A stretch of DNA of 47,338 nucleotides. Origin: Candidatus Altiarchaeota archaeon. Its GTDB lineage: Archaea > SpSt-1190. A model generated the notes under the pieces. That model saw nothing but the letters and a program-made list of their open reading frames with translations, was not told where the DNA came from and ran no database searches. The DNA lies in assembly GCA_018220955.1 (NCBI GenBank), contig JAAOXV010000007.1:1-47338 (forward strand), in the 5' to 3' direction. Each line of letters opens with the position of its first letter. Position 1 is the first letter of the stretch. Position numbers and translations under genes: made by a program. Shown here one piece after another: positions 2,596-42,673 of the stretch.

Positions 2596-2618
2596 TATCA
2601 CAAGCTTTGTGACAATAG

Positions 2619-2626: not shown

Positions 2627-2643
2627 CTTAACTTCCTCCAAGC

Positions 2644-4346: not shown

Positions 4347-4390
4347 TGTCACTCGGTAATTATTTAATTCTGAAGTAGGATAAAATTTTA

Positions 4391-5794: not shown

Positions 5795-5815
5795 AGCTAT
5801 AAGATAAAAAAAACT

Positions 5816-5824
5816 GATTAAAAA
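5816..5824 (-). promoter_or_regulatory. TATA-like box TTTTTAATC upstream of tRNA-CAU
   Basis: Centred about 26 nt upstream of the tRNA 5' end. The same 9-mer occurs at the elp3/proS divergent promoter. Confidence 0.35.
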
Positions 5825-5826
5825 GC

Positions 5827-6303: not shown

Positions 6304-6311
6304 TAAATCAC

Positions 6312-6722: not shown

Positions 6723-6753
6723 CTTGATTCGGTATTTTCGGTTTTTATAAAGG

Positions 6754-8091: not shown

Positions 8092-8110
8092 ATACAGTCT
8101 TGGTTTGTTT

Positions 8111-8138
8111 GATTAAAAATACATAGATTTTTTTAATC
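8111..8138. promoter_or_regulatory. Bidirectional promoter: perfect 9-bp inverted repeat GATTAAAAA / TTTTTAATC
   Basis: The arms lie at 8111..8119 and 8130..8138. Each reads TTTTTAATC toward its own gene, with its centre 23-24 nt upstream of the start codon (elp3 GTG 8091, proS ATG 8157). This implies near-leaderless mRNAs. Confidence 0.45.
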
Positions 8139-8156
8139 CAGGCATAGCTGAATTGT

Positions 8157-9590: not shown

Positions 9591-10003
9591 GCTTTTTTCT
9601 TTTTTAGCTTAGCTGGTTTTGGCTTTGGCTTAACAGGCTCTGGTTCCTGCTTTTTGGCTTTTGCCTTTTTAGCTGATTCAAGCTCAAATTTGCTCATTAC
9701 AAGCCATCTCGGGTCCATCCCATAGAAATGCGAGTCAGTCGAGTTAGTCATCGCATGCAGCTGGTTGGCTATGCTCTGAAGCTCTTTTTGGTTCTTAATA
9801 GCTGTTATATTGATAAACACAACATGCCCCTCATCAAGAGCAGTTCTGACCTTTGGTAGGTCTGCTGTAGACAAAAGCCGAACTATGTTCACAGTAACTA
9901 GCTTTTCTGTCTTTGAAACATGTGGTCCAGATGGTAAAAATATATCTTCCCCGAAAAGTGCCAGTTTGGCTTTCTTAAACGCATTCTTTAATGACTCAAA
10001 CAT
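9587..10003 (-). CDS. sepF: SepF-like cell-division protein with Lys/Pro-rich C-terminal tail
   Basis: N-terminal amphipathic helix 'MFESLKNAFKKAKLALFG' looks like a membrane-targeting sequence. The core 'VTVNIVRLLSTADLPKVRTALDEGHVVFINITAI...' fits the DUF552/SepF pattern. The tail is 'KKAKAKKQEPEPVKPKPKPAKLKKKKA'. Confidence 0.55.
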   Translation of the reverse strand: MFESLKNAFKKAKLALFGEDIFLPSGPHVSKTEKLVTVNIVRLLSTADLPKVRTALDEGHVVFINITAIKNQKELQSIANQLHAMTNSTDSHFYGMDPRWLVMSKFELESAKKAKAKKQEPEPVKPKPKPAKLKKKKA

Positions 10004-21319: not shown

Positions 21320-22525
21320 TTGATGGCAAATATACTAATAAAAAACGCACGCTGGATTTTCACGGCAGACCGGGTCCTACGAAACAAGGATATTCTGATT
21401 GAAAACGGAGTTGTAAGCGAGTTTGGTTCTGGTGAAGCAGATAGAGTCATTAATGGTGAAGATAAAATTGTGATGCCCGGGCTGATTAATTGTAATACTC
21501 AAACCAGTTTGAGCTCAAGTAAAGGACTGTCTGAACCAGAAAGGCTAAACCCAAAAACGGCGTTTCACTCTGCTATGATAGGTATACAGGATGCCATCAG
21601 CTCTGGAACTACCACAATTATTGATTCTGGCAGTTACCCAGAACAAGTAGCAAAGGCCATGAGAAAGTTAGGTGTGCGCGGATTTGTTGGTCAACTTATG
21701 TCTGATGGATTTGACCCTATCAAAAAAGAGGCACAGCTTAGGCGGACTAAGGAAAATCTGAAATTTATTGAGCGACTTAGTAACCCAAAAATTACTGGAC
21801 TGGTTGCGCTTGAATCACTAACCGATTGTTCAGACACATTAGTTATTGCAGCTAGGGAACTGGCTACAAGAAAACAAACAAGAATTAGCATGCCTGTCAG
21901 CAAAAACAAAAGTGAGGTTGAACTTGTCAGAAATGATAGGGGCGAAACACCACTCATGTATCTAAAAAAACTCGAAGTAACAAAAGGGCTTATGGCACTT
22001 GGCGGGAATAGCCTTACTGGGCGAGAAATAAGTATAGCAAACAGACATAAAACAACCATAGTTCATTGTCCTATTGCTGAGCTAAGAAACGGTTCAGAGA
22101 ATGCTCAAACTCACAAGCTAATGGAAAAAGGGGTGAATGTGTGTATAGGGACAGGCAGTCCAATCAAAAGCAATGCTGATATGTTTGAATCAATGAGGAT
22201 TACTGCGCTACTACAAAAAGAGCATGCAAACCCGTTTGAGATTCTGAGAATGGCTACAATAAGACCTGCTCAAATGCTTGGCCTTGATTCTGGAAGGATT
22301 GAACCAGGAAGCTGGGCCGACCTAATCTTGCTTGACCTAACTGAGCCAAACCTAAGACCGCTGACAACTTCAGAGCAGTTAATAAATCATTTAGTCTATT
22401 CAGCTAATAGAAAAAACGTGACAAGAGTAATCATTGATGGAGACTTGGTAATGCAAGACAAGCTTGAACCAGATGTTCATGCAAGGTTTTTGGAGGGAAG
22501 AGGGCGTTTGGTATGGGGATCATAG
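21320..22525 (+). CDS. Amidohydrolase-fold protein (MtaD/chlorohydrolase-like) with degenerate metal-binding motifs
   Basis: The family layout is present: 'ILIENGVV...IVMPGLIN', 'IVHCPIAELRNG', 'VCIGTGS...MFESMRITALLQK' and 'SGRIEPGSWADLILLD'. However, the HxH motif reads N-T-Q and the GTD Asp reads G. Start is TTG 21320 or ATG 21323. Confidence 0.65.
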   Translation: MMANILIKNARWIFTADRVLRNKDILIENGVVSEFGSGEADRVINGEDKIVMPGLINCNTQTSLSSSKGLSEPERLNPKTAFHSAMIGIQDAISSGTTTIIDSGSYPEQVAKAMRKLGVRGFVGQLMSDGFDPIKKEAQLRRTKENLKFIERLSNPKITGLVALESLTDCSDTLVIAARELATRKQTRISMPVSKNKSEVELVRNDRGETPLMYLKKLEVTKGLMALGGNSLTGREISIANRHKTTIVHCPIAELRNGSENAQTHKLMEKGVNVCIGTGSPIKSNADMFESMRITALLQKEHANPFEILRMATIRPAQMLGLDSGRIEPGSWADLILLDLTEPNLRPLTTSEQLINHLVYSANRKNVTRVIIDGDLVMQDKLEPDVHARFLEGRGRLVWGS

Positions 22526-22908
22526 GAACAAGCGTGAGGGCCAAAGTCATTGGAACTCTTGGTGAAAAAGAGCTGATAGCAAAAGTAGACACAGGCGCGA
22601 CACGAAGCTCGATTGATGCAGAAATAGCGGCTGAGACCGGACTCGGTCCAATTGTGTCAGTTAAAGGATACAAGTCCAGCTTAGGAAAAAAGCGGAGACT
22701 GATTGTGAAAGGCAAGATAGAGCTGTGCGGGAAAACCATAGAATCTGAGTTTTCTATTGCTAATCGAGAGCATATGAAATATCCGGTATTAATTGGTCTG
22801 GATATCTTGCGAGATCTAGATGTTATGATTGACCCGTCTATTCAAGGACCTGACCACGAGTGCTGCAGCAGGCAGTGTGAAGATAAAGAGAATTGTGTCT
22901 GCGAGTAA
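22513..22908 (+). CDS. Retropepsin-like aspartic peptidase (RimB/'Zn_protease' DUF785-type) with Cys-rich tail
   Basis: 'AKVDTGATRSSID' (DTGA) and 'YPVLIGLDILRDL' are present. The tail is 'HECCSRQCEDKENCVCE'. The start overlaps the preceding gene by 13 nt. Confidence 0.6.
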   Translation: MGIIGTSVRAKVIGTLGEKELIAKVDTGATRSSIDAEIAAETGLGPIVSVKGYKSSLGKKRRLIVKGKIELCGKTIESEFSIANREHMKYPVLIGLDILRDLDVMIDPSIQGPDHECCSRQCEDKENCVCE

Positions 22909-23361
22909 AAGCAAGGTCGAATAAACAGCAAGCAATTTCCAGAATAGTGGTCCTGAATTTTTCCAGGCGTCTATTATCTGCTTGTTTTCATAAAAACAGA
23001 GTGGAATAAGTGAAGTCCTGATAATGAGATAGAATGAGCCAAGATAAAGCAATTGAAACTTTGCATCAATAACAGAGAGATAAAAAGGAACAAGAATCAA
23101 TAAGTATGACAAAAATGCAAAAATGGTTGAACCAGTAAGGACAGACAGATATCTTTCAAGCGCTCTGTCAAAAATCTGCTCTGCCTCAAATCTTGGAAAG
23201 CTCTCTGCACACGAAAACAGGACCGAGATAAGCAAAGCAATTGCAAGCGGATAAAGAATAAATTCTGAGTAAGGAAAACTGATAGACTCAATCAAAGAAA
23301 ACAATAGAATATAGAGTGTGTAGAACAATAGCAAGTCTAACAGATATGTTCTGAACTTCAT
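22816..23361 (-). CDS. Hypothetical polytopic membrane protein, translationally coupled to SRP54
   Basis: 181-aa ORF of about 5-6 TM segments. Its start overlaps the srp54 stop in an ATGA. Its 3' end overlaps the convergent peptidase gene by 93 nt. Confidence 0.5.
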   Translation of the reverse strand: MKFRTYLLDLLLFYTLYILLFSLIESISFPYSEFILYPLAIALLISVLFSCAESFPRFEAEQIFDRALERYLSVLTGSTIFAFLSYLLILVPFYLSVIDAKFQLLYLGSFYLIIRTSLIPLCFYENKQIIDAWKNSGPLFWKLLAVYSTLLLLADTILFIFTLPAAALVVRSLNRRVNHNI

Positions 23362-24617
23362 CTCTTCAACCTCTTACCCATCATGAATGCCGGGTTTCTG
23401 CCTCGCTTGAGATTGCGCATCATTTTCCTCATTTTCTTGAACTCGCGCAACAATTCCTTTATTTCTTCTGCCTTGACTCCGCTCCCTTTTGCAATTCTAT
23501 CAATTCTTGACCGAGTCACTGTATCTGGTTCGTCCCGTTCAGCAGGTGTCATCGAGTTTATGACTGACTTGTATGTCTTCAGCTTTGCCTTTGAGTCAGC
23601 CACGGTTTTCTTGTCCAGGTCTGTCAACCCCACCATTTGAAACACTTTTTCGAGCGGACCTAGTTTGGTCATTGACTCGATTTGTTGGTAGAATGTTGTC
23701 AGCGTCAGCTTATCCAGGTCTTTTGGTTTTACCTCCATTCCGGTCTCTTTCACTTTTTCAATCAGGGTCTGCAAGTCCCCCCAACCCAATAAACGTGATA
23801 CATATCTGGCCGGGTTAAACTGTTCCAGGTCAGCGACACGCTCGCCAATACCAATAAACTTGACAGGCACACCTGCTGAGCTACAGGCAGACAAAGCCCC
23901 ACCTGCTTTGGCAGTTCCCTCCATTTTGGTTATCACCACGCCTGTGATAATGTTCTTGAATGCTTCCGCCTGTTTTCTTGTCTCATGTCCCATCTCAGCT
24001 GGTATGACCAACAGCACCTCATCTGGCTTGGCTTTTTTCACGATTTTTTTTGCAGATTCTAGTAGCTTTTTATCAAGCGCATCCCTACCAGCAGTATCAA
24101 TTATCACCGCTCCTTTTACTATTTCTTTCTCTGTCTTTAGCCCAATTGATTCACCAAGCTGGGTCAACTGTTCAAGTGCGGCCGGTCTATCGCGGTCAAG
24201 CGAGACAAGCACTGAATGAACTCCTTTCTTTTTTAGAAAATAACCTAGTTTTGCGGCTGTAGTGGTCTTTCCAGAACCATATAATCCAACCAGCACTATT
24301 CGCGTGTCTGGCTTGGTCTTTATTTCCCCTCCAACTCCCATTATCCCAGTCAGCTCGTCGTAAAACACCTTTAAAACATGCTCCTTGAGCGTGGTGCCTG
24401 AAACCGGTTTTTCATCAAGTGACTTCATTCTTATCTGCTTTGAAAGCTCGATAACTGTTCTAGGGTCTACATCCGATGCGATTAAAGCTCGCTGCATTTC
24501 CTTCAAAAGCTCATCAAGGTCTTTCTCACTTATACCCCCCTTGCCAGCAAATTTCTTGACTGCATCTCTAAGCCGTTTTCCAAATCCAGCTACCACGGTC
24601 AAAACAAAGCTAACCAA
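23358..24617 (-). CDS. srp54: Signal recognition particle protein SRP54
   Basis: N domain, G domain ('GLYGSGKTTTAAKLG', 'DTAGR', 'TKMEGTAKAGGALS') and M domain ('MTPAERDEPD', basic C-terminus) are present. The ORF starts at TTG 24617, and GTG 24596 is also possible. Confidence 0.9.
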   Translation of the reverse strand: MVSFVLTVVAGFGKRLRDAVKKFAGKGGISEKDLDELLKEMQRALIASDVDPRTVIELSKQIRMKSLDEKPVSGTTLKEHVLKVFYDELTGIMGVGGEIKTKPDTRIVLVGLYGSGKTTTAAKLGYFLKKKGVHSVLVSLDRDRPAALEQLTQLGESIGLKTEKEIVKGAVIIDTAGRDALDKKLLESAKKIVKKAKPDEVLLVIPAEMGHETRKQAEAFKNIITGVVITKMEGTAKAGGALSACSSAGVPVKFIGIGERVADLEQFNPARYVSRLLGWGDLQTLIEKVKETGMEVKPKDLDKLTLTTFYQQIESMTKLGPLEKVFQMVGLTDLDKKTVADSKAKLKTYKSVINSMTPAERDEPDTVTRSRIDRIAKGSGVKAEEIKELLREFKKMRKMMRNLKRGRNPAFMMGKRLKR

Positions 24618-24624
24618 TTATAAA

Positions 24625-27600
24625 CTATTTGAGATAAATTACGACTCCGACTACCATGAGAATCAATGCACCTATTGCAAAAGAAGTCTGCTTCAGCATA
24701 GACTCCCGGGCCGCATATTGTTTAAACCTGCCTATCGTCTGCTCCTTTGCCAGCTCTTCATTAAGCTCAATCAAAATCAACTTGGCCTGCTCAAACTTAC
24801 CTTGGTCAACAAAATCTCGTGCATCCCCAAGCTGATCAGCATAGAGTTGTTGTCTATTTGAGCTGAGATCATCAAACATCTCTTCCACATCCTCTAACAG
24901 GTACTGTACTTCTGTGGGTAATGGAAATGAAACATCTAGCACAAACATCCCTTCTTGCTTTTTATCTGGGTATTTTTCTGGGAAAGCAATCACAGCAATA
25001 TCAAAGATGCCTGGCGAGCTTGGTGGCTCAAACTGAATCGCCAGCGAGTAGCTAGACTGCTCTTTCAAAGCTCGGTGATACTCATCTATCTCAAGTTCAG
25101 AATCAAACATAAAGACATATGGGCCTGAATAATCCTGAGTAGTTATATTGACTGCAAAGCTGGCTGGCAGACCAAACGAAAGCTCGGTGCTTTGGTCTAC
25201 AAGAGACAGTATCGGTGTGACCACCTTTTTCTCAACCAGTATTTCAATACATTTTCGGTTGTTTGGGTCTTTTACAGATGAAACACAGAGAGTAAAGTTT
25301 CCGGGTCGGTCAGCTATGATAGTCAGGTCTTCGCTTTGTTGTAGGTCTATTGTCATCTCAGTATCTGATAAAACCATTTCAGATGATACAAGATAGCTGT
25401 CTGCAGTATTTCCTACATTGATTATAGTCACAGTCCCATATGTCTCATCATCAATCAGGTCAAGTGATAGGGAAATTGGCGTGATATCAAACTCATATAT
25501 CGGAGTATCTGACAAAATAATAGTTGAGCTGGCGCTTGCGATAATGTTTGATTCTAAATCAACTGTTCCATAAATATTGAACACTTGTCCTTCCTCACCT
25601 GCTGGAATCTCAATTGGCAAGGCTATCATCTTGATTTCATAACCAGACAAGGTCACGGTTTGGACAGGCGAGCTTATCTTTGCGTCAGCATTGCTTGTTC
25701 TAAACTCGACAGTCACATTGACAGTTGGCCCATCATTCTCTATAACAAAATATAGCTTGGCTGTTGCGCCTCTAGTTGGAACATAGGAGGTAGTCGGCGA
25801 GAAATAAGCACCAAGGAATGAAGGGATTATCACTTCTGTTGGCCAGCTTGAGATAAGCTGGTCATAGAAAGGTGCGGTTACTTTGATGATTAGCTCTGCT
25901 GGGCCGACATCTGCATAGACTGGTATTGGTGCAACAGGACTGTCGGTTGCAAGCGGTATCTCCATTCCTCTACTGGTATTCAGATACCAAGTATAATGAT
26001 AGCCAGTCACCAGATTTCCTAGCTCGTCCCGCACAGCCAAGATATCAAGTCCATACTCAAATGCAGGAAGAACTTCATTTGGTATGGCTGCAGAAACTGA
26101 GTTTAGTCTGCCATAAAATGAGATGCCTGAGTTGATGGTTGTTTCCAACAAGTAATCACCTGTGAATGTGCATTCAACTGCATGTGAACCAACACTAACC
26201 GTGGTCGGTGTTTGTAAGACTAGCTGGCCTGTTGCGATTTGGTCAATGTTGGGAATAAGTGTATCTGAAGCAATAGTCTGGCCAAGCTCGCAGCTCACAT
26301 CAACTGAGCCAAGCGTGCCGCCTACTGTTTCAAGTGAATCAGACCAAGCTGATACTGTGATAACTGGCGGATAGACTGAGCAAAAGCCGGCTGAGCCGCT
26401 TCTATAATAGCACTTGTCCTTTGCGATACTGGCTGTGATTGGATGATATACCTCTAGCGACAAACTCACATTCTTGGGCATATAGTCCATCTGTCGGACT
26501 TCATACTTGAGGCTGTTAATCCCTTTCGGCATTCCGTCTATATGAACAGTATATACGGTATCAACATTATATCCGTTGAATAGTGTCCTCCAGCTTGTGC
26601 CAGAGACATCTCGGACTGTTATGTTTCGCATGTCCTCCCATGGAACACCAACAAGCTCGTCCCACATAATTGAGTTTAGATTGAGCTGAAGTGTATAACC
26701 ATCTGGGTCATAGGTAACAACACCAGTACATTCAAATATTGTGCCAGTATCCTGACAGGAAAAGCTCTGGACATTGCTGGGTGCACCTAGTGCAGTTAGT
26801 TGAACACCATTAATCATGGTCCTGTCATAGTTCTTCTGACATTCATGGTCACACACAAATCCTAGTGCAACTGTTCCTACCTGATTTCCACCACAACCAA
26901 CTGCAGCCCCACAATATTCATAACAGGTCCTTCCCCATTCTGGGTGAACCAAACTTGTTTGTATTCCAGTATTGTATTGTGAATCACAACAGTCTTTGCA
27001 GATGCCTGGATTTTCTAGCTCGCTTCCAGCTATGCCTTCATCACAGCTACTATCACCACAGATGTCTGTGCAGGTTCCGGAGAATGCATAAGACCAAGGC
27101 ATCTCGCCAAAGTCACCATAACCATTGATTGACACAGCAGGTATTGGTTTGCAGAGTGACACTGTATCAAGTGTTCCATCCAAGTCAGTTCCTTTATTCA
27201 CATAAGCAAAACAGCTTGAATTTTGATAACAAATCCCACCATTGCCGGTTAGCTCGGTCTGGTCAGCCGAGCCAAATTGGTCAAGCTGGATTCCTGACTG
27301 GCAATTGGTACCGGTCTGGACAGATATTTCTGCTGAGCTCATTACAGAGTTAAGCGAGCTATCGATTAGCTCAACAAATATGATGGCACTGCCAGACTGA
27401 GCTGTGTCTATCACATCAGCCAGCGGAACAAGGAGTGCCTTAGCTGTGCCTGCTTCTTGAACCCTAATTGAATAGTTGTGTGGATAGGAATTAATATTGG
27501 TCAACAAATCAAATCTTTGCGGTTCTGTTCCGATTATGACATTAATAGTATCAGGCACGCCAGTAAGATAATCATCTGCATCATCAGTAAATTGGATTCC

Positions 27601-30600
27601 GAGGAAATAACCAGTACAGGTTTCGGCTGTGAAAGAACAGTCACCAGGTTCACAAACCCAATCAGACTCGGTTCCACTCTCAAAGGACTTGATGTCTGTC
27701 CAGCTATCATCCAAATCAATCTGGAAGAACGCACCAACATTGTCTGGGTCGGCGCAGATAAAGTTTGATGCGCAGAAAGGTAAACTAACTCCGCCTTCAT
27801 CAAAACAATCATCAGAATCCATACATGGTTCACTCAAACCACATTGGTCGCTGGTGGCAGAAAAAGCCAGATCGGTTTGGATATCATTAACTAGATATGT
27901 TGAGCCGGCTCTGTTGAACATTTCAAGATCAAACACTAGCTCTCTGTTGATGTTTGCATATGATGGGATAATCTGAATCTTGTTTCCTTTTGCCTGACAA
28001 ACTTTCCAATAATAACCATCTGATTTTTTTATCACTGATGTATCAGCATCAGTAAACTCAAACGAGTCTGTGGTTGTTCCGCCAGTCAGCTTCTTGTTAC
28101 CAACATAGAGCGGATGACTTGTTGAATCAAGTGTAAGCTCACAACCGTTCTCGCCACAGTGCGGGTCATATGGGATAAGCAGACAGGCATCATAAAGTTC
28201 GCAAGTATCTATCTCTGGAACTGGTTCACTGTTCCCTGGAACAAAGAATTCAAAATCAAAGTTAGTTGAATAGTCAGACCTTGGTTCACACCATTCAGTG
28301 CAGATTGAGTCACCTGCCTCGGATGACGAGCAGCTGAGGTCAGAACCACAGCTCACAAAGCAGCTTGTGTCATCATACTGACTCTGCAGGGGTATTCCGC
28401 AGAATATGTTTCTCATAAATCCAAGCGTTGCGGTGCCTTCACCAAGCTTTGTGTCGGTTATGCTTTTGTATTCGTTCATACTACAGCTAGCGTCCAACTC
28501 GGTTGAGACTGGCGCTTCACAACAGTCCTTGCAGACTGAATAAGATTCGTAAGTATCACAATCAGGTGAAACATCCATCAAGCCGGCGCTCAGGGTTATT
28601 CCATAACCAGTTATGCTAAACGTGCCAGATCTATCAGCAGTCCATCTACAAGTATATTCACAATCTGAATTACAAACGTCTGGCGAACCGTCATGCCCAT
28701 CACAGAAAGCGTCATAAACATTATTCTTCTCTGACCAGCTGGTTACATAATCAGCCACCCGAGCTCTGAAATAGTTACCAAGTTCACATTCTGACAAAGT
28801 TTTTCCAATATTGGTACATTCACCTATTTGAATAACATTGTCAGCTATGCTCATATTACAAATACCGAGACACTGAGTCGAACCAATACAGTTAGCCGGG
28901 CTGTCCTGATATGCAAAGGTCGCGATAAGCTGAGATTCAATGGTGTTCTCTACCGTGTTACTGCCTTCATCAGCTGAAATCACCCAATCACATTGAACAT
29001 CAATATTACAAGGTATCTGGATTTTGTCATCAACCGTGCACATGGTTTTTATCTCGTTTCTCGGCAGGTCAGCTGAATAATCAGCTGATTCACCGACCAC
29101 CTGGCTGTCGGCTGTTATTCTGGTTAGGTCTCTCACCACATAGCAGTTTCCAGGCGCATAATCATATTCAACATTTGACTCGTGTGGAAACCAGGCTGGT
29201 TCTGACAAACCCATTGTGAATTCTGCATCATTATATGGAATAAACTCGCCAACAGTTATCTTTGGGTCATCTGCGGTCGGCCACATATTTGGAACCCAGC
29301 CATATGTCTGTGTGCCTTGCACACAGGTCCAGCTGCCTGTGCTGTATGTGACATCTACATTCTTATCTCCATTGGTTGAAGTGAAGTTATAGCCAGGCAA
29401 CAAGCTAGCGGGTTCAAGATAACACTGCTGGTTAGAAGCACATCTGAGCAGCCAGCTCTGAATTATCTCGTTTCCGTTCGATGACTCAATCGGTGTAGTA
29501 GCTGTAAAAACCGTATATGTCCCAGATGGCATAATAACAAGATAGTCGCCTGTTATCGAACAGCTTGAGATTGTAGCAGATTGGCTGGTCGTGCAATCAC
29601 AGTTCCAATATCCACTAGCGTAACTGCAAGTGATTGTGTGAACATAGCTCGGATTTGTTGGAAGTGAGTTGAACTGGTATGTTCTATAGTCTGTTGTGCT
29701 TGCACTCACTATTGTAAGCTCTTGTGTGGTTGGAAACTGCCGGCCTGCTGTTTCCGCGTCACAGCTCTGTGTCTCGTCATCTGTATTCCCAACACAACTG
29801 GCTTCAGCTGCTATGTTAGAATAAATTATGCTGGACAAAGACTTTTGATAATAGTAGTTCTGACTTGTATCTATATCAGTACCCCTCCAGAAGCCGTTAC
29901 AGGATTCACAAACAGTGCTGAGTACATTCTCATCTGTCGTGATATCATCCCAATCTGATTCTGCATCACAACCAAAATTACCCCAGTAATAATCGCTTAA
30001 AGAATCCATTACACAAACATACTCTTCCTGCTTTGTTCCTTCTGCATCACAGATAGCCAAAACACCCTGGTCGGTTCCAGAATAATAACAAAGGCTTTCA
30101 TTCTTTGAATCAAGTGCATCATAATCCCAAAGCACTGCATTGTCTTCTTCTTCCAAGCTGGTGCTTGCAGTCCAGGACGGGTTTGACGCCTCTGTCTGTT
30201 TTATACAATGATAGCTTGAGTTATCTATTGTCTTTCTTGAACAATCACCTGTACTACACACATAATCTACACAAGAGGAATCAAGGGTAGGTGTACTGCA
30301 CACACAGATTAGAGCATTGTCTGGTCCAAAGGGACCATAACCCTGTGATGATATATCGATAACCCATTCAAGATGGTCTGATGAATCTTTTGTACAATAA
30401 TATCTGTCAGCGCCAACAGTTGCTCGTTCACAGATATTGTTCGCTGAACAGCTATGGAACTCGCCGTCATCATCGCAGAGAGCTTCGTTACCTCCTGAAT
30501 CAAAAATATCGCCTGATGTAAGCCAACCCTCGATTGTGCAATGATATGTATTTGAATCAATGGTTTCGCTCACCCCACAATTGCCGCCAGGTGGAGAATC

Positions 30601-31656
30601 ATCATTGCAGACAAATTTCTCGCCAGAATTACATAAGACTTCATAATGTGAATCACCGTCTGTATCATACTGAATATTCACACCGCTGGAGACCCAATGA
30701 TAATCATCATTTTGATAAACACAAGTATAATTTGTTGAACTCACGGTAATTTGACTACAAATGCTTCCAGAATTACAAATATTGTCCTCATTATCTAAAC
30801 ACACAATCTCATATCTACCATCGCCATCGTCATCAATTCTTGTTGGAGGACTGTCAACCCATTTCCAACCAGAGTCGTAACTGCAATGATAATCACCCTC
30901 ATTAGAACATGCATTATCTGAATTGCATTCATATGGATTACAGCTAGAATCACAATAGGAAGCTCCACTAGGTGAAAGCGAGCCAGGAGCAGCATCATCA
31001 CATAAGGGATCTGCGCCGCAGGCAGACTCGCATCTGTCAATGGTTTCACCCAAGCCACTGATATGTTCATCCCAGGTTCCAATAATCCTAGTGGCTATTT
31101 TACCATCGCATCCAACACAAGACGCATCAGAAGAAGACCAAAAGCTCCGTCCATAATATGATTCTTGTGCCGATGTCAGAAAAATTTTTTTCACATTATT
31201 ACCAATACGTGCAACAGTACAGACTTTACCGTTCCAGCTAACACCGGTAAGCTTTGGACAATAACAGCCACCAGAACATCCTGCATCTGTTATCTCGCCT
31301 ATTTCAGAAGTTCCAATTACGGTCGCATCATCATAATATGTAGAAAGAGTGCAAACTTGACTGGAACTAGCCCCAATAGAAGCCCAAACTCCTTCACCAT
31401 CAACATCACAACACGAAATTCCACACAAACCAGTATCATAAGATGAACCAAGTTCAATAGCCCCATCAGAATAAGTAGCGCCCTGAGAAAAGTCATCACC
31501 TACTTGACAAAGAACAGCATCAGTGTGTTCATCACATCCAAGACAACCACACCACCTTATTTTTCCTTCAAGGTCACAAACCCATGCGTACCCATATGTC
31601 CCAACTGCAAGAATTGACAAAAGAACAAGAATTCCGGTAAGACGGGGGCTTCGCAT
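24625..31656 (-). CDS. Giant cysteine-rich secreted/C-terminally membrane-anchored surface protein, unknown family
   Basis: The uninterrupted ORF is open to TTG 31674 (2,349 codons), and ATG 31656 is preferred. It has signal-peptide-like 'MRSPRLTGILVLLSILAVGTYGYA' and a single C-terminal TM 'FAIGALILMVVGVVIYL'. It contains tandem Cys modules and Ig-like Cys-poor C-terminal segments. No catalytic motif was recognised. Confidence 0.85.
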   Translation of the reverse strand: MRSPRLTGILVLLSILAVGTYGYAWVCDLEGKIRWCGCLGCDEHTDAVLCQVGDDFSQGATYSDGAIELGSSYDTGLCGISCCDVDGEGVWASIGASSSQVCTLSTYYDDATVIGTSEIGEITDAGCSGGCYCPKLTGVSWNGKVCTVARIGNNVKKIFLTSAQESYYGRSFWSSSDASCVGCDGKIATRIIGTWDEHISGLGETIDRCESACGADPLCDDAAPGSLSPSGASYCDSSCNPYECNSDNACSNEGDYHCSYDSGWKWVDSPPTRIDDDGDGRYEIVCLDNEDNICNSGSICSQITVSSTNYTCVYQNDDYHWVSSGVNIQYDTDGDSHYEVLCNSGEKFVCNDDSPPGGNCGVSETIDSNTYHCTIEGWLTSGDIFDSGGNEALCDDDGEFHSCSANNICERATVGADRYYCTKDSSDHLEWVIDISSQGYGPFGPDNALICVCSTPTLDSSCVDYVCSTGDCSRKTIDNSSYHCIKQTEASNPSWTASTSLEEEDNAVLWDYDALDSKNESLCYYSGTDQGVLAICDAEGTKQEEYVCVMDSLSDYYWGNFGCDAESDWDDITTDENVLSTVCESCNGFWRGTDIDTSQNYYYQKSLSSIIYSNIAAEASCVGNTDDETQSCDAETAGRQFPTTQELTIVSASTTDYRTYQFNSLPTNPSYVHTITCSYASGYWNCDCTTSQSATISSCSITGDYLVIMPSGTYTVFTATTPIESSNGNEIIQSWLLRCASNQQCYLEPASLLPGYNFTSTNGDKNVDVTYSTGSWTCVQGTQTYGWVPNMWPTADDPKITVGEFIPYNDAEFTMGLSEPAWFPHESNVEYDYAPGNCYVVRDLTRITADSQVVGESADYSADLPRNEIKTMCTVDDKIQIPCNIDVQCDWVISADEGSNTVENTIESQLIATFAYQDSPANCIGSTQCLGICNMSIADNVIQIGECTNIGKTLSECELGNYFRARVADYVTSWSEKNNVYDAFCDGHDGSPDVCNSDCEYTCRWTADRSGTFSITGYGITLSAGLMDVSPDCDTYESYSVCKDCCEAPVSTELDASCSMNEYKSITDTKLGEGTATLGFMRNIFCGIPLQSQYDDTSCFVSCGSDLSCSSSEAGDSICTEWCEPRSDYSTNFDFEFFVPGNSEPVPEIDTCELYDACLLIPYDPHCGENGCELTLDSTSHPLYVGNKKLTGGTTTDSFEFTDADTSVIKKSDGYYWKVCQAKGNKIQIIPSYANINRELVFDLEMFNRAGSTYLVNDIQTDLAFSATSDQCGLSEPCMDSDDCFDEGGVSLPFCASNFICADPDNVGAFFQIDLDDSWTDIKSFESGTESDWVCEPGDCSFTAETCTGYFLGIQFTDDADDYLTGVPDTINVIIGTEPQRFDLLTNINSYPHNYSIRVQEAGTAKALLVPLADVIDTAQSGSAIIFVELIDSSLNSVMSSAEISVQTGTNCQSGIQLDQFGSADQTELTGNGGICYQNSSCFAYVNKGTDLDGTLDTVSLCKPIPAVSINGYGDFGEMPWSYAFSGTCTDICGDSSCDEGIAGSELENPGICKDCCDSQYNTGIQTSLVHPEWGRTCYEYCGAAVGCGGNQVGTVALGFVCDHECQKNYDRTMINGVQLTALGAPSNVQSFSCQDTGTIFECTGVVTYDPDGYTLQLNLNSIMWDELVGVPWEDMRNITVRDVSGTSWRTLFNGYNVDTVYTVHIDGMPKGINSLKYEVRQMDYMPKNVSLSLEVYHPITASIAKDKCYYRSGSAGFCSVYPPVITVSAWSDSLETVGGTLGSVDVSCELGQTIASDTLIPNIDQIATGQLVLQTPTTVSVGSHAVECTFTGDYLLETTINSGISFYGRLNSVSAAIPNEVLPAFEYGLDILAVRDELGNLVTGYHYTWYLNTSRGMEIPLATDSPVAPIPVYADVGPAELIIKVTAPFYDQLISSWPTEVIIPSFLGAYFSPTTSYVPTRGATAKLYFVIENDGPTVNVTVEFRTSNADAKISSPVQTVTLSGYEIKMIALPIEIPAGEEGQVFNIYGTVDLESNIIASASSTIILSDTPIYEFDITPISLSLDLIDDETYGTVTIINVGNTADSYLVSSEMVLSDTEMTIDLQQSEDLTIIADRPGNFTLCVSSVKDPNNRKCIEILVEKKVVTPILSLVDQSTELSFGLPASFAVNITTQDYSGPYVFMFDSELEIDEYHRALKEQSSYSLAIQFEPPSSPGIFDIAVIAFPEKYPDKKQEGMFVLDVSFPLPTEVQYLLEDVEEMFDDLSSNRQQLYADQLGDARDFVDQGKFEQAKLILIELNEELAKEQTIGRFKQYAARESMLKQTSFAIGALILMVVGVVIYLK

Positions 31657-31677
31657 CCAGATTAGTAAAGCCAAACC

Positions 31678-31685
31678 ATATTTAA
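31678..31685 (-). promoter_or_regulatory. TATA-like box TTAAATAT upstream of the giant gene
   Basis: Centred about 25 nt upstream of ATG 31656, in the 47-nt gap after aEF-2. This would give a near-leaderless transcript and argues against the TTG 31674 start. Confidence 0.35.
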
Positions 31686-31721
31686 CTGTTTCTTTGGGCT
31701 AGAATCCATAAAAGCTGGTGA

Positions 31722-33923
31722 TTAGACTAAGAAAGCGCTTGCAGGAATCTGTTCTTTCATTCCTTTTCGCTTTCTTATCTTTAGTATAGTTGGTATCTGC
31801 AGCTCTTTTGGTAGTGGTTCGAATCGACTGTCTATCAGCGACCAGTAGCCCATACCGTTTGTAGCTGAACGAAGCTTGCTAGTAAAACCAAACATGTTTG
31901 ATACAGGCATATCTGACACAACAGCCACATTCTCTGCTGACTCCTGGTCAACCTCCAACACCCGACCGCGCCTGCCTTGAACCAGACTTGTAACTGCGCC
32001 CATATACTCTGTCGGAGAGTCTATCCTAATAGTCTGAATCGGCTCGTTCAAATGCGCACCAGCATCAAGCATCGCTTCCTTAATCGCATCCCGACTAGCT
32101 GGAATAATCTGAGCTGGGCCACGGTGAATGCTGTCCTCATGTAGTTTCGCATCTGTAATCAATATCTTCATTCCTGATGATTTCTCGCCTGCAAGCGGAC
32201 CTCTACCCAGAACATCATTCATTCCATGTATAGTATGGTCCATTATCTCACCCAAGTGAACAACTCCTCGGGTTGCATCAATCATGATATTACCGTTCTT
32301 GATGATGATGGCCTTTTTCGCTTGGTCCTTGCTCATTCCAGCAGCCATCAGTTCCTTGACTGTTCGCTCATCCTTGCCTTTTCTTATCACGCCTTCTGAA
32401 ATTTCGCCTGCGATTATTTTTTCATAAACTTCCTGTTCAATGGGTTCTATTTTGATATAGAGTTTATTATGCTTGTTTGGCGACTTGCCTTCTGCTGTCT
32501 TGGAAGTTCGGTCAACTGTCTCCCTAAAAACCACAATCGGTGGGCTTGACTTAACCTGCACTTTCCAGTCTCGAACAATAAACTTTTCTTTTATCTCCAA
32601 ATGCAACTCACCCATTCCACTCATCAGGATTTCGCCGGTCTCTTGGTTGATATCTATCTTGAGTGTCGGGTCTTCTTTTGACATCTTGATTAGAACTTCC
32701 ACTAGCTTAGGCAAATCTTTCGGGTTCTGTGCCTCAATTGCCTTGGTCACAACTGGTTCGAATATATGTTTGATTTCTTCAAATGCTTCCACATCCAGCT
32801 CATCCGATAGTGTTTCACCTGCTTGAGCAGACCTAAGTCCAACTACGGCAGCAATATTCCCAGCTGATAACTCCTCTACCGAAATTCGGAAAGGTCCTTT
32901 GTAAAAAGCCACTTGTTGAACTCGCTCCTTTGATTTTGAACCAATTAGATATACCTCTGAACCTGCTCTTAATCGACCAGAAAAAATTCTGGTAGTCGAG
33001 ACTTCGCCTGCATGAGGGTCATTCACTATCTTGGTGATGACTGCCATGAAAGGACCGTTCTCATTACAATCCATCATTGATTTGCCACGCTCGCTATCCA
33101 TATCACCTCTCCAAATTTTGGGTACACGGTATTTCTGTGCTTCGAGCGGGCTTGGAAGATGCTCAACCACCATACCAAGCACGGTTGTGTGAAGTGGTGC
33201 CGGTTTTGCAAGCTCATCCTGCTTATCATCTCGGTATGCATCCAATATTTCTTTGAAGCCCACACCACTTGATTTCATGACGACCATATTAGTCGCCCAT
33301 TTGTCAACAGCAGACCCAAAGCCAACTGTTCCTTGCGGTACACCGACCTGCCAGTCTTTCTTATGTTCTTCTGGTGCAAACTTCTCGATTAGCTGGTTTA
33401 CTTTTGTGATTATTTTTGCAAATCTCTGTTGCATCTCTTCTGGAGTCAGCTGCAGTTCTTTGATAAGCCGGTCAACTTTATTGATAAACAAAATAGGTTT
33501 CACTCGTTCACGAAGTGACTGGCGCAGGACAGTCTCTGTTTGTGGCATAGCACCCTCAACCGCATCTACAATCACCATAGCTCCATCAACTGCTCGCATA
33601 GCTCTGGTTACTTCACCACCAAAGTCTACGTGTCCTGGCGTATCTATCAAATTTATCAGATAGTCTATTCCACTCAGCTCATGAACCATGCTAACGTTTC
33701 CAGCATTTATTGTGATTCCCCGTTTTTGTTCTTCCTCATCAAAATCAAGCCATCTTGCCTCCCCTGCCACCGCCTCACTCAGCATGCCGGCGGCCGCAAC
33801 AAGCGAGTCGCTCAGCGTGGTCTTCCCATGGTCAATATGAGCGATAATACCAATGTTTCTGATTCTATCCTTGTTCTCCATCATTCCAACAATGATTTTT
33901 TTTAAATCTTTTTTCTTTGCCAT
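31722..33923 (-). CDS. fusA: Translation elongation factor 2 (aEF-2)
   Basis: G1 motif 'AHIDHGKTTLSD' and 'DTPGHVDF' are present. The diphthamide-site context 'HEDSIHRGPAQ' is present. Length 733 aa. Confidence 0.95.
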   Translation of the reverse strand: MAKKKDLKKIIVGMMENKDRIRNIGIIAHIDHGKTTLSDSLVAAAGMLSEAVAGEARWLDFDEEEQKRGITINAGNVSMVHELSGIDYLINLIDTPGHVDFGGEVTRAMRAVDGAMVIVDAVEGAMPQTETVLRQSLRERVKPILFINKVDRLIKELQLTPEEMQQRFAKIITKVNQLIEKFAPEEHKKDWQVGVPQGTVGFGSAVDKWATNMVVMKSSGVGFKEILDAYRDDKQDELAKPAPLHTTVLGMVVEHLPSPLEAQKYRVPKIWRGDMDSERGKSMMDCNENGPFMAVITKIVNDPHAGEVSTTRIFSGRLRAGSEVYLIGSKSKERVQQVAFYKGPFRISVEELSAGNIAAVVGLRSAQAGETLSDELDVEAFEEIKHIFEPVVTKAIEAQNPKDLPKLVEVLIKMSKEDPTLKIDINQETGEILMSGMGELHLEIKEKFIVRDWKVQVKSSPPIVVFRETVDRTSKTAEGKSPNKHNKLYIKIEPIEQEVYEKIIAGEISEGVIRKGKDERTVKELMAAGMSKDQAKKAIIIKNGNIMIDATRGVVHLGEIMDHTIHGMNDVLGRGPLAGEKSSGMKILITDAKLHEDSIHRGPAQIIPASRDAIKEAMLDAGAHLNEPIQTIRIDSPTEYMGAVTSLVQGRRGRVLEVDQESAENVAVVSDMPVSNMFGFTSKLRSATNGMGYWSLIDSRFEPLPKELQIPTILKIRKRKGMKEQIPASAFLV

Positions 33924-35427: not shown

Positions 35428-39371
<3,944 letters not shown>

Positions 39372-39375: not shown

Positions 39376-41184
39376 TCACCTCTTATCCCTAAGCAACAGC
39401 TTAGGATAAATTCCGATTGTTATCAATTCTTGTAACATGATATGGAACGCATAACTAACCTCAATCCATTCGATATTTTCCCCACCACAGACTGAACAAT
39501 ATGCCTTGTCCTTCATATAATCATATATTGAAATAACCCCACAGCTCGAGCATACTGGAATTGTGGTCATATCTGAACTGAACCGCTCTTTCAACAATAG
39601 ACTGGCACCGTGCGAAACAAGACAATCCTTTTCCATTTCACCCATCCTAAGGCCACCAATCTTACTGCGACCTTCTGTTGGTTGTCTTGTCAAAACCTGT
39701 ATCGGTCCTCTTGCACGAGCGTGTATTTTGTTTGCCACCATGTGCCGAACTTTATGATAGTAAATCACGCCAGTGAAAATTTCAACCTGATATTTTTCAC
39801 CTGTCATTCCGTTATATAGCGTCTCTTTACCGCTCGGTTTCAGTCCATGTGAAATAAGAATTTGTCTTGCTTCTTTGATAGGGTCTCCATCAAAAGGAGT
39901 GCCGTTCATAATCTTGCCTGAAACTGCAGCAGCCTTACCAGTAAAGAATTCAATCACTTGTGAGAAAGTCATACGACTCGGGATACCATGTGGATTGGTT
40001 ATCATATCAGGAACAATTCCTGTTGATGTAAATGGCATGTCTTGATGCGGAACTACCATACCAATAACACCTTTTTGACCGTGACGTGAAGAAAACTTAT
40101 CACCAAGCTCTGGTATTCGGTCATCACGAACTCTTGTCCTAATGAGCTTTCTTCCTTCTACATTCTCTGCCACAACAACTGAATCAATCCACCCATGCTC
40201 GTCATGCCTAACCCGTTCACTTGTGTCTCGCCTAGATTCAACACCAATCCTAAACAAATTCATTGAACCCAGAAACCTTGGTGGTGATGTTCTTCCAACT
40301 AATACTGTATCTCCATCTGCCTTACTCTCTGGGTGAATAATACCATCTGTGTCAAGTAAAGCATAATGTTCTTCCAAAGTATAGCCTGCTAGGTCTTTTT
40401 CTGGCAATTCTATTTTGTCTTCCTGACCTCCAGGATATCGTTTTTCAATAACTGAGTATGGTCTAAAATAGGTGCTCCTACCAAGTCCTCGGTCAAGACT
40501 GGCCTGATTGAATACCATGCCATCTTCCATATTATATCCTTCCCAAGTCATCATGGCGACCACAAAATTCTGCCCAGCCGGGTGTTGGTCAAAGTTCAGA
40601 ATTTTATGCATATGAGTCTGCACAACCGGAACTTGTGGATAGTGAAGCATGTTTGAGAATGTATCAAACCTAATTGGATAATTGAGTGAATAAATTCCGA
40701 GTGCCTGCTTAACACCCTTACTGGTACCATAATTAACTCGGTCGCCTCTTGAGTAATTAGCATAAGGCACAAGCGAGCCAGGAACACCCAAAAGAGTCAT
40801 TGGATGTGGTTCAAGATGAGTGTGTTGTTTAGTCACGCTTTTTTCATCCAATGCAATAAATGCGTTCTCTTCTTCTTCTCCATCAAGGAACTCCACCTTA
40901 CCTGTCTTCAAAAGATCTTTCCAACCAATCTTGCCATCCTCAAGCTTTTTCAGGTCTTCTTTTTTCAAAAGCGGTTTTCCGCTTTGAACAACTATTAACG
41001 GTCGCAATACCCGCCCGGCCATTGTGTCAATTCTAACCTCTCGCCTAGATTCAATATATGCAACTGTTATCTCTGAATGGATTTTGCCCTTTCGTCTCAG
41101 ACCACGCAGATTGGCGACTAACTTTTCTGACTGTTTTTTGTCAAGTTTTCCAACTATCTTACCATTTACAAGAACATTAATCAC
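39376..41184 (-). CDS. rpoB1: DNA-directed RNA polymerase subunit B' (C-terminal half of split RpoB)
   Basis: 'GDKFSSRHGQKGV' and the C-terminal Zn ribbon 'CSSCGV...CSVCGG' are present. GTG start, overlapping the rpoB2 stop by 8 nt (GTGATTAA). Confidence 0.95.
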   Translation of the reverse strand: MINVLVNGKIVGKLDKKQSEKLVANLRGLRRKGKIHSEITVAYIESRREVRIDTMAGRVLRPLIVVQSGKPLLKKEDLKKLEDGKIGWKDLLKTGKVEFLDGEEEENAFIALDEKSVTKQHTHLEPHPMTLLGVPGSLVPYANYSRGDRVNYGTSKGVKQALGIYSLNYPIRFDTFSNMLHYPQVPVVQTHMHKILNFDQHPAGQNFVVAMMTWEGYNMEDGMVFNQASLDRGLGRSTYFRPYSVIEKRYPGGQEDKIELPEKDLAGYTLEEHYALLDTDGIIHPESKADGDTVLVGRTSPPRFLGSMNLFRIGVESRRDTSERVRHDEHGWIDSVVVAENVEGRKLIRTRVRDDRIPELGDKFSSRHGQKGVIGMVVPHQDMPFTSTGIVPDMITNPHGIPSRMTFSQVIEFFTGKAAAVSGKIMNGTPFDGDPIKEARQILISHGLKPSGKETLYNGMTGEKYQVEIFTGVIYYHKVRHMVANKIHARARGPIQVLTRQPTEGRSKIGGLRMGEMEKDCLVSHGASLLLKERFSSDMTTIPVCSSCGVISIYDYMKDKAYCSVCGGENIEWIEVSYAFHIMLQELITIGIYPKLLLRDKR

Positions 41185-42673
41185 TCTTGATGACCTCCTT
41201 GATTGATTTCTTGACTGTCCTGACCATAGCTTCTTCCTCTATTTTCTGACTGACCTTTGCCAAAAGTGCCAGATTTTTTCTGAGTCCAATATTCTGACCT
41301 TCCGGAGTCTCTGCCACACAAAGCTTACCCCAATGTGTAGGGTGAAGCTCTCTTGCCTCAAAATGAGGTTGACTTGATGTAAGCGGGCTCATCACCCGTC
41401 TCAAGTGCGACAGTGTGTCAAAATGATTTAGGCGCTGCAGATGTTGGCTGACACCGGTTCGACCACCAATCCAATATCCTGTTGCCATCGCACTCTGGAT
41501 TCTCGAAGTCAGTAGTTGTGAACGTACGATGGTTGATGGAGATGGTTCACGATTGCGCTTGATAGCTCGTTCAAGTGAATATTTGATATCGTTCACAAGT
41601 GTCTTAAACGCTGCACGGAACAGCTGTTCCATAAGTTCACCAGACATCTTGAGTCTCTTGTTTCCATAATGATCTTTATCATCTATAGTCTCTTTTCCAT
41701 AATGAACTCTTATCAGTTTTTCTGCTACCATTCCGATATAGCTGGCTTTTTCTGCCCTGAATTGTTTGCCGCGGCCTATATGAGGAAGCAAGTAATTATC
41801 CATCAAATATGATACTCGATTAACTCGGTAATCAATGCCTTGTCCAATCTTGAGTTTTTTACCAATAGCGTCCATTGCTTCTTCAGGAGTTTTTACTTCT
41901 TCAAGTGCCTCAATATTGACCATCACATCTTCAACATAACTCGGTGCATTTGTTATCGCGCTCACAATTTTCTGATCAGTATTTTCGCCGAGCGCCATTA
42001 ACATTATTGATATCGGTACTCGTGGTACTCGTGCCCATGACACATTGATGGTTCCGTCCTTCATTCGTTCAAACAAATGTGGAATTCTGAAACCTGGAGT
42101 CTCGCTGAAAATCCTACTTGATTCCTGGGCTGGTCCCGAACTCTTCTCAACTAAAGGTAAGTTCGGTATCAAATCTTCGATTGTGACTATTACTCGCTCT
42201 GTCCCATTTATTATAAAATAACCTCCAGGGTCGTCTGGGTCTTCCCCAACTTCCATTAACTCATCCCTACTTAATTCGTTTAACAAACACTTCTTGCTCC
42301 TGACCATCATTGGTAATCCACCTATCTCCGCCCAGACAGGTTCATCAGGATGTCCATCTTTTTCAACTATGATTTCCAAGTGTAGTGGAGCAGAATAAGT
42401 TATTTCCCTTATTCTTGATTCCATTGGATACAATAGAGACGAAGAACCGTCGGCTTCACGCACAACCGGATGCAATATCCGCAGGTTACCAAAATTGAGA
42501 TTATATGTCTCAAAACCACGCGGAGCGAGCAGAGGCTCGATTCCACCGACCTCTGAAATCACCCTTTTCATTCCATTTTCAAGAAAACTGTTGAAAGAGT
42601 CAATATGATGTCGGACTGTTCCATATTCATTAAAAAAGGCACTAGCAATCAAGGGAAAGGATTTCTTTATCAT
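41177..42673 (-). CDS. rpoB2: DNA-directed RNA polymerase subunit B'' (N-terminal half of split RpoB)
   Basis: N-terminus 'FFNEYGTVRHHIDSFNSFLENGMKRVI' follows the typical Rpb2/RpoB N-terminal pattern. Length 498 aa. Confidence 0.95.
   Translation of the reverse strand: MIKKSFPLIASAFFNEYGTVRHHIDSFNSFLENGMKRVISEVGGIEPLLAPRGFETYNLNFGNLRILHPVVREADGSSSLLYPMESRIREITYSAPLHLEIIVEKDGHPDEPVWAEIGGLPMMVRSKKCLLNELSRDELMEVGEDPDDPGGYFIINGTERVIVTIEDLIPNLPLVEKSSGPAQESSRIFSETPGFRIPHLFERMKDGTINVSWARVPRVPISIMLMALGENTDQKIVSAITNAPSYVEDVMVNIEALEEVKTPEEAMDAIGKKLKIGQGIDYRVNRVSYLMDNYLLPHIGRGKQFRAEKASYIGMVAEKLIRVHYGKETIDDKDHYGNKRLKMSGELMEQLFRAAFKTLVNDIKYSLERAIKRNREPSPSTIVRSQLLTSRIQSAMATGYWIGGRTGVSQHLQRLNHFDTLSHLRRVMSPLTSSQPHFEARELHPTHWGKLCVAETPEGQNIGLRKNLALLAKVSQKIEEEAMVRTVKKSIKEVIKSD

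Follow-up and report, generated by a model that had tools for sequence, protein, structure and literature searches.

The SlaA/SlaB pair of the Sulfolobales places a large outer portion on a stalk, and its SlaB component is made up of tandem beta-sandwiches, a helical segment and a C-terminal transmembrane (TM) helix. The same elements occur in the same order in the last ~700 residues of a giant protein encoded on contig JAAOXV010000007.1 (assembly GCA_018220955.1, deposited as Candidatus Altiarchaeota archaeon SpSt-1190), of which positions 1 to 47,338 of the forward strand were analysed (47,338 nucleotides, hereafter the window). As a whole the chain resembles a fusion of SlaA and SlaB in logic, but it differs from the pair in being the product of a single gene, in having an outer part that is predicted to be disulfide-rich and is poor in N-x-S/T sequons, and in its modelled three-helix bundle where SlaB has a coiled coil. 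Searches of the PDB by sequence and by profile showed no similarity to SlaA or SlaB, and neither chain was present among the top 50 structural matches obtained with Foldseek. Membership in the SlaA/SlaB, halobacterial csg or tetrabrachion groups was rejected because no sequence or profile homology to any of them was found and no archaeal S-layer chain occurred among these 50 matches.

A second set of comparable proteins comes from the DPANN archaea, where MJ1_0160 and MJ1_0707 of Nanobdella aerobiophila, NEQ300 of Nanoarchaeum and Micr_00292 of Micrarchaeum have been reported as putative S-layer or surface proteins with immunoglobulin (Ig)-like folds (bioRxiv 10.1101/2023.10.27.564410). Like the giant protein and its relatives, these proteins possess a signal peptide, several Ig-like folds and in some cases a C-terminal TM helix, are confined to narrow lineages, and are recognised only by structure prediction. 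However, they comprise ~1000 amino acids, are rich in N-glycosylation sites and were not reported to be Cys-rich (bioRxiv 10.1101/2023.10.27.564410), whereas the members of the giant family are two to three times larger, contain ~5% Cys in conserved positions, and for the most part have sequons at or below expectation. None of the four was among the relatives retrieved by the exhaustive search described below. The third parallel is offered by giant bacterial adhesins (SiiE, the MpIBP-type RTX ice-binding adhesin and Bap), which are likewise fixed to the cell at one end and extended by a long series of beta-sandwich domains, with a separate region at the distal end. They differ from the giant protein, which is archaeal, of the Sec type, anchored by a TM helix, and by prediction disulfide-rich: the bacterial adhesins depend on Ca2+ for stability, contain few Cys, leave the cell by type I secretion and have their anchor at the outer membrane. 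The giant protein is of a familiar kind, since large surface proteins restricted to particular archaeal lineages are expected in DPANN; the family itself is new.

The translation elongation factor EF-2 encoded in the window is 67–75% identical to that of metagenome-assembled genomes (MAGs) labelled as Undinarchaeota or mislabelled as ‘Altiarchaeota’ or ‘archaeon’, and at most 58% identical to that of other DPANN. The window is therefore assigned to an Undinarchaeota-like DPANN archaeon with a small genome, in line with an initial annotation, made from the sequence, which had pointed out that giant Cys-rich surface proteins recur in small-genome episymbiotic archaea and bacteria. The giant gene is an uninterrupted minus-strand open reading frame (ORF) of 2,349 codons counted from a TTG (24625..31674), and the runner-up in the window is 2.4-fold shorter (987 amino acids), as expected from the original description of a single ORF more than twice as long as any other. 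By our own estimate, an open frame of this length would arise by chance at 43% G + C with a probability of ~e^-140. When translated from the ATG at 31656, the protein has 2,343 amino acids, exactly 116 Cys and a net charge of -233. We put about even chances on its being an envelope protein of the S-layer type, specific to its lineage and inherited vertically, with type-I anchoring in the membrane and an exposed and fast-evolving tip, most likely the main surface coat of the cell; it is the best candidate for a cell coat or host-contact protein of the Undinarchaeota. The elements of the gene, with residues numbered from ATG 31656, are as follows.

24625..31656, minus strand: coding sequence of the giant surface protein, 2,343 amino acids plus stop codon TAG (24625-24627); the ORF track reaches TTG 31674
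31678..31696, minus strand: promoter-like element read from the sequence, consisting of a purine-rich stretch CAAAGAAACAG resembling a transcription factor B recognition element (BRE), followed by the TATA-like TTAAATAT
31585..31656, minus strand: signal-peptide-like N-terminus, residues 1-24, MRSPRLTGILVLLSILAVGTYGYA, recognised by hydropathy, with putative cleavage before W25
29080..31584, minus strand: variable Cys-rich distal region, residues 25-859, which aligns poorly and differs in length and module content among relatives
29977..30969, minus strand: six tandem 4-Cys repeats of ~45-55 amino acids each, residues 230-560 (self-BLAST, motif listing, repeat hidden Markov model (HMM), alignment A5)
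26707..29079, minus strand: conserved Cys-rich core, residues 860-1650, with invariant Cys columns in alignments A2 and A4
24922..26706, minus strand: about six beta-sandwich (Ig-like) domains, residues 1651-2245, predicted with AlphaFold2 and Foldseek
24706..24915, minus strand: predicted three-helix bundle, residues 2248-2317, acidic and resembling a tetratricopeptide repeat (TPR) hairpin, with the motif ..EEGxFEEA..
24628..24687, minus strand: C-terminal TM anchor, residues 2324-2342, plus terminal Lys 2343 (hydropathy 2.0-2.4; helix in the AlphaFold2 model)

The first orthologue was located by synteny as a 2452-amino-acid ORF between the genes of EF-2 and SRP54 on contig DSCG01000037.1 (L002). 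Its product contains 102 Cys, starts with a putative signal peptide and ends in a TM helix; residues 776-2343 of the window protein align to it with 27% identity (E 1e-156). When residues 1050-2249 served as query in an exhaustive phmmer scan of 1.84 billion representative proteins, 11 relatives were returned, all with E<=2.5e-37 and separated from everything else by an empty gap between 1e-30 and 1e-3. Four of the 11 carry a name from their source, in each case ‘hypothetical protein’, and the remainder are unnamed. Complete or near-complete members have 2096-3215 amino acids, with the exception of P0011, a complete short form of 1029 amino acids; P0008 (959 amino acids) and P0010 (903 amino acids) are shorter fragments. 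Full-length collinear homologues are present in at least eight independent assemblies from different sources, which rules out an assembly chimera and speaks against a frameshift artefact. Scanning metagenome contigs with alignment A1 recovered only duplicates of the L002 contig (L081 and L082). Word-indexed protein searches with the full-length protein, a 12-sequence profile or residues 25-1049 found the query entry or nothing; they missed known members too and are uninformative, the word prefilter (8000 candidates) being saturated for this composition.

No Pfam family matched the whole protein at E<=1, only noise was obtained with ten sub-segments at E<=10, and none of the 12 family members produced a Pfam match above threshold. 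In NCBIfam, the window protein and P0016 were without a match, and P0003 matched only FimV_Cterm, below threshold (18.4 bits, E 0.0016; cut-off 30.65). Comparison with PDB chains by phmmer and by profile hmmsearch (family, core and repeat alignments) gave nothing or helical-repeat noise. Pfam, NCBIfam and PDB searches of the whole protein and the ten sub-segments thus detected no catalytic or binding domain, and these databases contained no full-length homology to a characterised S-layer or adhesin family; the initial annotation, too, had recognised neither a catalytic motif nor a characterised family. An S-layer tile of the MSTP/DUF1608 type was rejected since no Pfam S-layer tile matched the window protein or the 12 members. 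The same holds for the SPEARE-type giant proteins of Nanohaloarchaeota, whose single chains, according to a study of that group, reportedly unite serine protease and restriction-endonuclease domains with adhesion domains: neither Pfam nor NCBIfam revealed a protease or nuclease domain. A literature search retrieved no published description of the giant-protein family. Judged by these comparisons, it is a new protein family without detectable relatives outside a narrow DPANN lineage.

Kyte-Doolittle analysis revealed just two hydrophobic spans, at residues ~6-27 and 2324-2342, the latter followed by the terminal Lys. The N-terminus has two Arg in its n-region, a 14-residue h-region and the motif G-Y-A at positions -3 to -1, and equivalent N-termini are present in the complete relatives P0003, P0004, P0006, P0011 and P0016. 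This agrees with the n/h layout noted earlier from ATG 31656, and the segment is a putative cleavable Sec signal peptide. At the other end, the anchor has the consensus YTxAxxGxxLIAVGxxLYLK with 100% alignment occupancy across the family, and in most members just one residue, Lys or Arg, follows it. As there are only two hydrophobic spans, one at each end, and both recur in the relatives, the type-I and almost wholly extracellular topology suggested before is supported. Processing as an archaeosortase/exosortase (PGF-CTERM) substrate was considered and rejected, because the protein has no PGF motif and no NCBIfam sorting-signal model matched. The conserved YTxA...LYLK end could be an undescribed sorting signal.

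An exact recount agreed with the earlier figure of 116 Cys, about 110 of them in the first ~1650 residues and six in the last ~700: 110 are located up to residue 1643, and the other six at positions 1749, 1759, 1789, 1829, 2124 and 2136. Ser (10.5%), Asp (8.7%), Thr (8.3%) and Gly (7.8%) are the commonest residues, as had been noted, with Tyr and Cys at 5.0% each. The statement that N-x-S/T sequons are numerous did not hold, as 13 were observed against 19.8 +/- 3.7 expected from composition-preserving shuffles (z = -1.9). In the family, sequons are at or below expectation in most members and enriched only in the divergent P0011 and P0012.

The conservation of Cys is most pronounced in the core: overall identity to seven long relatives is ~25%, yet 49 of its 53 Cys recur in >=85% of these proteins. 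From residue 860 to the C-terminus, 55 of 59 are conserved at that same level of identity. The core contains two related CxDCC...CxxxCG modules at ~1033-1123 and ~1529-1606, and segment-wise self-BLAST identified an internal duplication of residues 1040-1097 and 1551-1613. No relative of the core was found in the PDB or Pfam. The Cys count is even in each of the seven complete members, and this, together with the near-total positional conservation, fits a role of the Cys in putative structural disulfides.

Residues 25-859 show a different pattern: identity to the relatives is 16-17%, alignment occupancy is ~0.63-0.66, and 13 of the 57 Cys are conserved, while tblastn matches of the N-terminal region to the orthologues are weak or absent. 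Six copies of a 4-Cys repeat with the consensus C-x(7-9)-C-x(5-10)-C-x(8-12)-Y-x-C-x(5-12)-W were detected in the window protein by the repeat HMM (E 1e-12 to 4e-22). The repeat also occurs, in varying copy number, in P0002, P0003, P0006, P0009, P0012 and P0016; the HMM did not find it in P0004, P0011 and P0005, the last of these being an N-terminally incomplete record. It has no relative in the PDB. Residues 25-235 gave a sub-threshold match to the Pfam family Fim-adh_lectin (E 0.0055). Differences between the N-terminal regions account for the length range within the family, and the short form P0011 lacks the region altogether but is still found at the locus and retains the C-terminal end of the core together with stalk and anchor.

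For residues ~1640-2343, AlphaFold2 with an 11-sequence alignment produced a model with a mean predicted local distance difference test (pLDDT) score of 80, which comprises about six beta-sandwiches, a three-helix bundle (helices at model positions 609-623, 627-645 and 649-678) and the TM helix. The best Foldseek matches of this stalk in the PDB are tandem Ig arrays, namely hydin/central-pair proteins, the S-layer protein SbsB, complement macroglobulin (MG) domains and titin (E 1e-19 to 1e-13), among which no one family stands out. In the predicted model, the last ~700 residues are thus shown to have an Ig-like fold. At the sequence level, weak sub-threshold Pfam matches to Ig-like families appeared in single relatives (FixG_C 2e-4, HYDIN Ig 3e-3, NEW3 0.06). 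The original suggestion of CARDB/NEW3-type modules is therefore right as to the beta-sandwich fold, but membership in these families was rejected: the weak NEW3 match concerns one of 12 members, and no member reaches the Pfam gathering score for these or any other Ig-like family. An invariant signature N-x-G-x(3)-D-x-Y (N2080, G2082, D2086, Y2088) is present throughout the family and presumably resembles the N-x-G motif of CARDB-type domains. A charged helical stalk had likewise been proposed in front of the anchor. An acidic helical segment does precede the TM helix, but it is modelled as a compact three-helix bundle (~2248-2317) and not as a long coiled coil; its profile weakly matches designed TPR-like helical repeats (E 1e-4).

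When proteins from the same genomes are compared, identity falls from ~71% for EF-2 to 50-58% for SRP54, 49-55% for isoleucyl-tRNA synthetase (IleRS) and 22-29% for the core and stalk of the giant protein, whose N-terminus can barely be aligned. Such a gradient, as seen in these alignments, is the usual pattern of exposed surface proteins. A comparison at the DNA level was possible for the L002 orthologue, which is represented by three near-identical populations (L002 positions 2542-9900 against L087 and L082). Between L002 and L087 there are 17 differences in 12,113 aligned nucleotides, all of which lie within the giant gene, and 16 of them are nonsynonymous and one synonymous. EF-2, SRP54 and the spacers contain none, and 15 of the 17 fall in codons 125-726. 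The six differences between L002 and L082 in 9,069 nucleotides (five nonsynonymous, one synonymous) are all located in codons 228-726. According to our own binomial estimate, the probability that 15 of 17 changes fall within 15% of the aligned sequence is ~1e-10. To judge from these substitutions, this clustering indicates either diversifying selection on the distal part or an imported variant tract. A diversity-generating retroelement target was rejected: no reverse transcriptase or template repeat is nearby, the variable sites span 1.8 kb in the N-terminal part and involve all base types, and there is no variable repeat (VR) pattern of ~100 bp.

The giant gene terminates an archaeal transcription and translation cluster encoded entirely on the minus strand, which consists of split rpoB, split rpoA, NusA-KH, S12, S7 and aEF-2. 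Its immediate surroundings are the following.

31722..33923, minus strand: aEF-2, the 5' neighbour, identified with Pfam; part of the rpoB-rpoA-nusA-S12-S7-EF2 cluster
23358..24617, minus strand: SRP54, the 3' neighbour, identified with Pfam; starts 7 nt past the stop codon of the giant gene
22816..23361, minus strand: small membrane protein of 181 amino acids with four TM helices (4-TM), located after SRP54; translation and hydropathy

Synteny places aEF-2 at the 5' flank of the giant gene in L001, L002, L004, L083, L084 and L087, and SRP54 at its 3' flank in L002, L083, L084/L085 and L087. The order EF-2, giant gene, SRP54, continued by a 4-TM ORF and IleRS, is shared by the window, L002/L087, L083 and L084/L085, and in L001 and L004 EF-2 is directly followed by the 5' portion of a similar ORF. 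The gene that usually comes after EF-2 in other DPANN is EF-1alpha. The search for orthologues in related genomes thus did turn up related giant proteins, but the picture of an isolated oddity gave way to that of a small, vertically inherited family at a fixed position between EF-2 and SRP54: the giant protein is a stable, single-copy and vertically inherited part of the Undinarchaeota gene set. Its adjacency to SRP54 may possibly reflect functional coupling with this targeting GTPase, or be a coincidence in a compact genome. The 181-amino-acid 4-TM protein matched no Pfam or NCBIfam model; it is weakly conserved by position in L002, L083 and L084 (BLASTP E 5e-4 between the window protein and a 192-amino-acid ORF of L002, and 7e-6 between L002 and L083) and may form a conserved unit together with the giant gene. 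Between the 4-TM ORF and IleRS, the window additionally contains an amidohydrolase gene on the plus strand (21320-22525), whose TTG start overlaps the start of IleRS by ~30 nt. In L087 the corresponding spot retains only a 101-amino-acid remnant with a weak Amidohydro_1 match and in L083/L084 there is none, so that its position is variable amid otherwise conserved synteny. Within the upstream cluster, rpoB (39376-42673, minus strand) is split into two ORFs with an 8-nt overlap, and rpoA (35681-39371, minus strand) consists of A' and A''.

The TATA-like TTAAATAT ends 21 nt before ATG 31656, which makes this ATG more likely to be the true start than TTG 31674; the latter would sit within the BRE/TATA-like element. 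An AAAGAAA..TTAAATA arrangement 19-22 nt 5' of the start codon is common to the window gene and the L002/L087, L001 and L086 loci, and L083 and L084 have T-rich equivalents. On sequence grounds, this suggests transcription of the giant gene from a dedicated promoter, with an mRNA that has little or no leader. In G + C content (0.43) and codon usage, the gene does not stand out from the remainder of the window. Its codon adaptation index (CAI), calculated with EF-2, S7 and S12 as reference, is 0.72 and thereby close to that of the EF-2 and Rpo genes, most other genes having values of 0.62-0.70, although this comparison rests on a 47-kb sample and CAI is a weak proxy of expression.

Combined, these features outline how the protein could work as part of the envelope. 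Transcription would start from its own BRE/TATA promoter, probably giving a leaderless mRNA, and the product would be exported via Sec through the cleavable signal peptide and tethered by the single C-terminal TM helix with essentially no cytoplasmic tail. The three-helix bundle and the approximately six Ig-like domains would form a membrane-proximal stalk, ~20-25 nm long if extended, bearing the conserved core of ~800 residues, which would be held together by ~26 conserved disulfides. Beyond the core would follow the distal N-terminal region of expandable 4-Cys repeats, which is lineage-specific and appears to change by replacements between near-identical populations. The conserved C-terminal ~1000 residues may serve anchoring and lateral packing, and contact with hosts, viruses or particles would fall to the variable tip as the exposed face of the protein.

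The interpretation as an S-layer-type envelope protein is favoured because of the fixed position among housekeeping genes, the promoter-like element, the retention of anchor, stalk and core end in P0011, and because no other coat has been identified. In the work that described the Undinarchaeota, neither SlaA nor SlaB was found, and the ‘uncharacterized S-layer protein (arCOG03418; IPR006454)’ listed for them is a 307-amino-acid helix-turn-helix (HTH) regulator of the ArsR family with a match to PF05124 (PMC7414124 supplement). This arCOG03418 protein is probably not a surface-layer protein. Several observations weigh against the envelope interpretation. Characterised archaeal S-layer proteins are usually heavily N-glycosylated, and the giant protein is poor in sequons (13 versus ~20 expected); a Cys content of 5% is likewise unusual among S-layer proteins. 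The spread in total length (1029-3215 amino acids), which arises from the N-terminal two-thirds, would hamper a uniform lattice unless the conserved C-terminus packs. To these are added the weak codon-usage signal and the location of the divergent family member P0012 outside the EF-2/SRP54 context. The AlphaFold2 model of the core is unreliable (pLDDT 48), and its Foldseek matches, generic beta-sandwiches with TM-scores <=0.12 that include adhesins of the SiiE/MpIBP/Bap type, carry little weight. Abundance and the formation of a lattice or coat are, moreover, properties that we infer, as are export, disulfide formation and binding. Finally, an MSTP-like tile has been reported for other DPANN phyla (bioRxiv 10.1101/2024.05.28.596244), and as the window covers 47 kb only, another S-layer candidate may be encoded elsewhere in the genome. 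The more far-reaching proposal that the family is the Undinarchaeota S-layer protein and represents a new structural class, in which a single anchor/stalk/canopy chain would use ~58 disulfides instead of glycans and expose its outer 4-Cys repeats as a host- or virus-recognition surface under diversifying selection, is rather doubtful in our assessment.

The main, though tentative, alternative, compatible with a place in the envelope, is a dedicated host-attachment adhesin or fibril, in which individual molecules or small groups of them, projecting on the Ig-like stalk, would bind a host ligand via their Cys-rich N-terminal repeats. The layout of anchor, Ig-like extender and variable distal region is that of giant adhesins, and the modular and expandable nature of the N-terminal region, the excess of amino-acid replacements in it between near-identical populations and the sub-threshold lectin hint all agree with such a function, as does the symbiotic lifestyle inferred for Undinarchaeota (PMC7414124). 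However, strict single copy and a fixed place among translation and targeting genes over deep divergence are more typical of a core structural gene, and P0011 is complete without the whole N-terminal region yet keeps the locus. In addition, these archaea have no known host, and the domain searches revealed no binding domain. The hypothesis of host attachment raised in the initial annotation is thus backed indirectly by N-terminal hypervariability and replacement excess, while the fixed locus points at least equally to a core envelope protein. The strongly negative net charge and the many Cys motifs such as CxDCC and CxxxCG could also be those of an enzyme or of an extracellular scaffold for binding or scavenging, for instance a polymer- or metal-binding protein that captures substrates or cations at the cell surface without a structural or host-contact role; acidic archaeal S-layers have been proposed to concentrate cations. 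This is improbable, given that neither the whole protein nor its sub-segments contained a recognisable catalytic or binding domain and that the even Cys counts and positional Cys conservation fit disulfides better than free thiols or metal clusters. The metagenome-type contig and a size that is extreme for a small genome might raise the suspicion of an artefact or foreign DNA, be it an assembly chimera, pseudogene run-through, a transferred mobile or viral gene, or a retroelement target. This suspicion is effectively refuted by the collinear homologues from independent assemblies and by the lack of any retroelement hallmark; a horizontal or viral origin was rejected in view of the native G + C content and codon usage, the conserved synteny and the housekeeping character of the neighbours.

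Undinarchaeota are uncultivated DPANN, and the giant family provides a concrete, phylum-wide and single-copy candidate for their cell envelope and their contact with partners. It suggests a division of labour between a conserved anchor, stalk and putatively disulfide-bonded core on one side and a fast-changing tip on the other. The questions it opens concern the identity of the cell coat, the part of the surface that is under selection, and whether a disulfide-rich architecture could be a DPANN alternative to glycan-stabilised S-layers. The fixed position between EF-2 and SRP54 eases recovery of the gene from fragmented MAGs, and the variable N-terminus could act as a marker of strain or host range. 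The conserved locus, the disulfide architecture suggested by the Cys pattern and the localised replacement excess make the protein a good target for experiments.

Two further genes of the window deserve mention. Archaeal RpoH usually consists of just the C-terminal domain of Rpb5. The ORF for RNA polymerase subunit H (6312-6722, minus strand; 136 amino acids) combines this domain with an N-terminal extension of ~60 residues, which has a weak sub-threshold match to the SAP domain (E 5e-4). An ORF of 456 amino acids (4391-5761, plus strand) has no Pfam match and carries the motif HETGH (HExxH), which suggests a zinc metallopeptidase-like protein.

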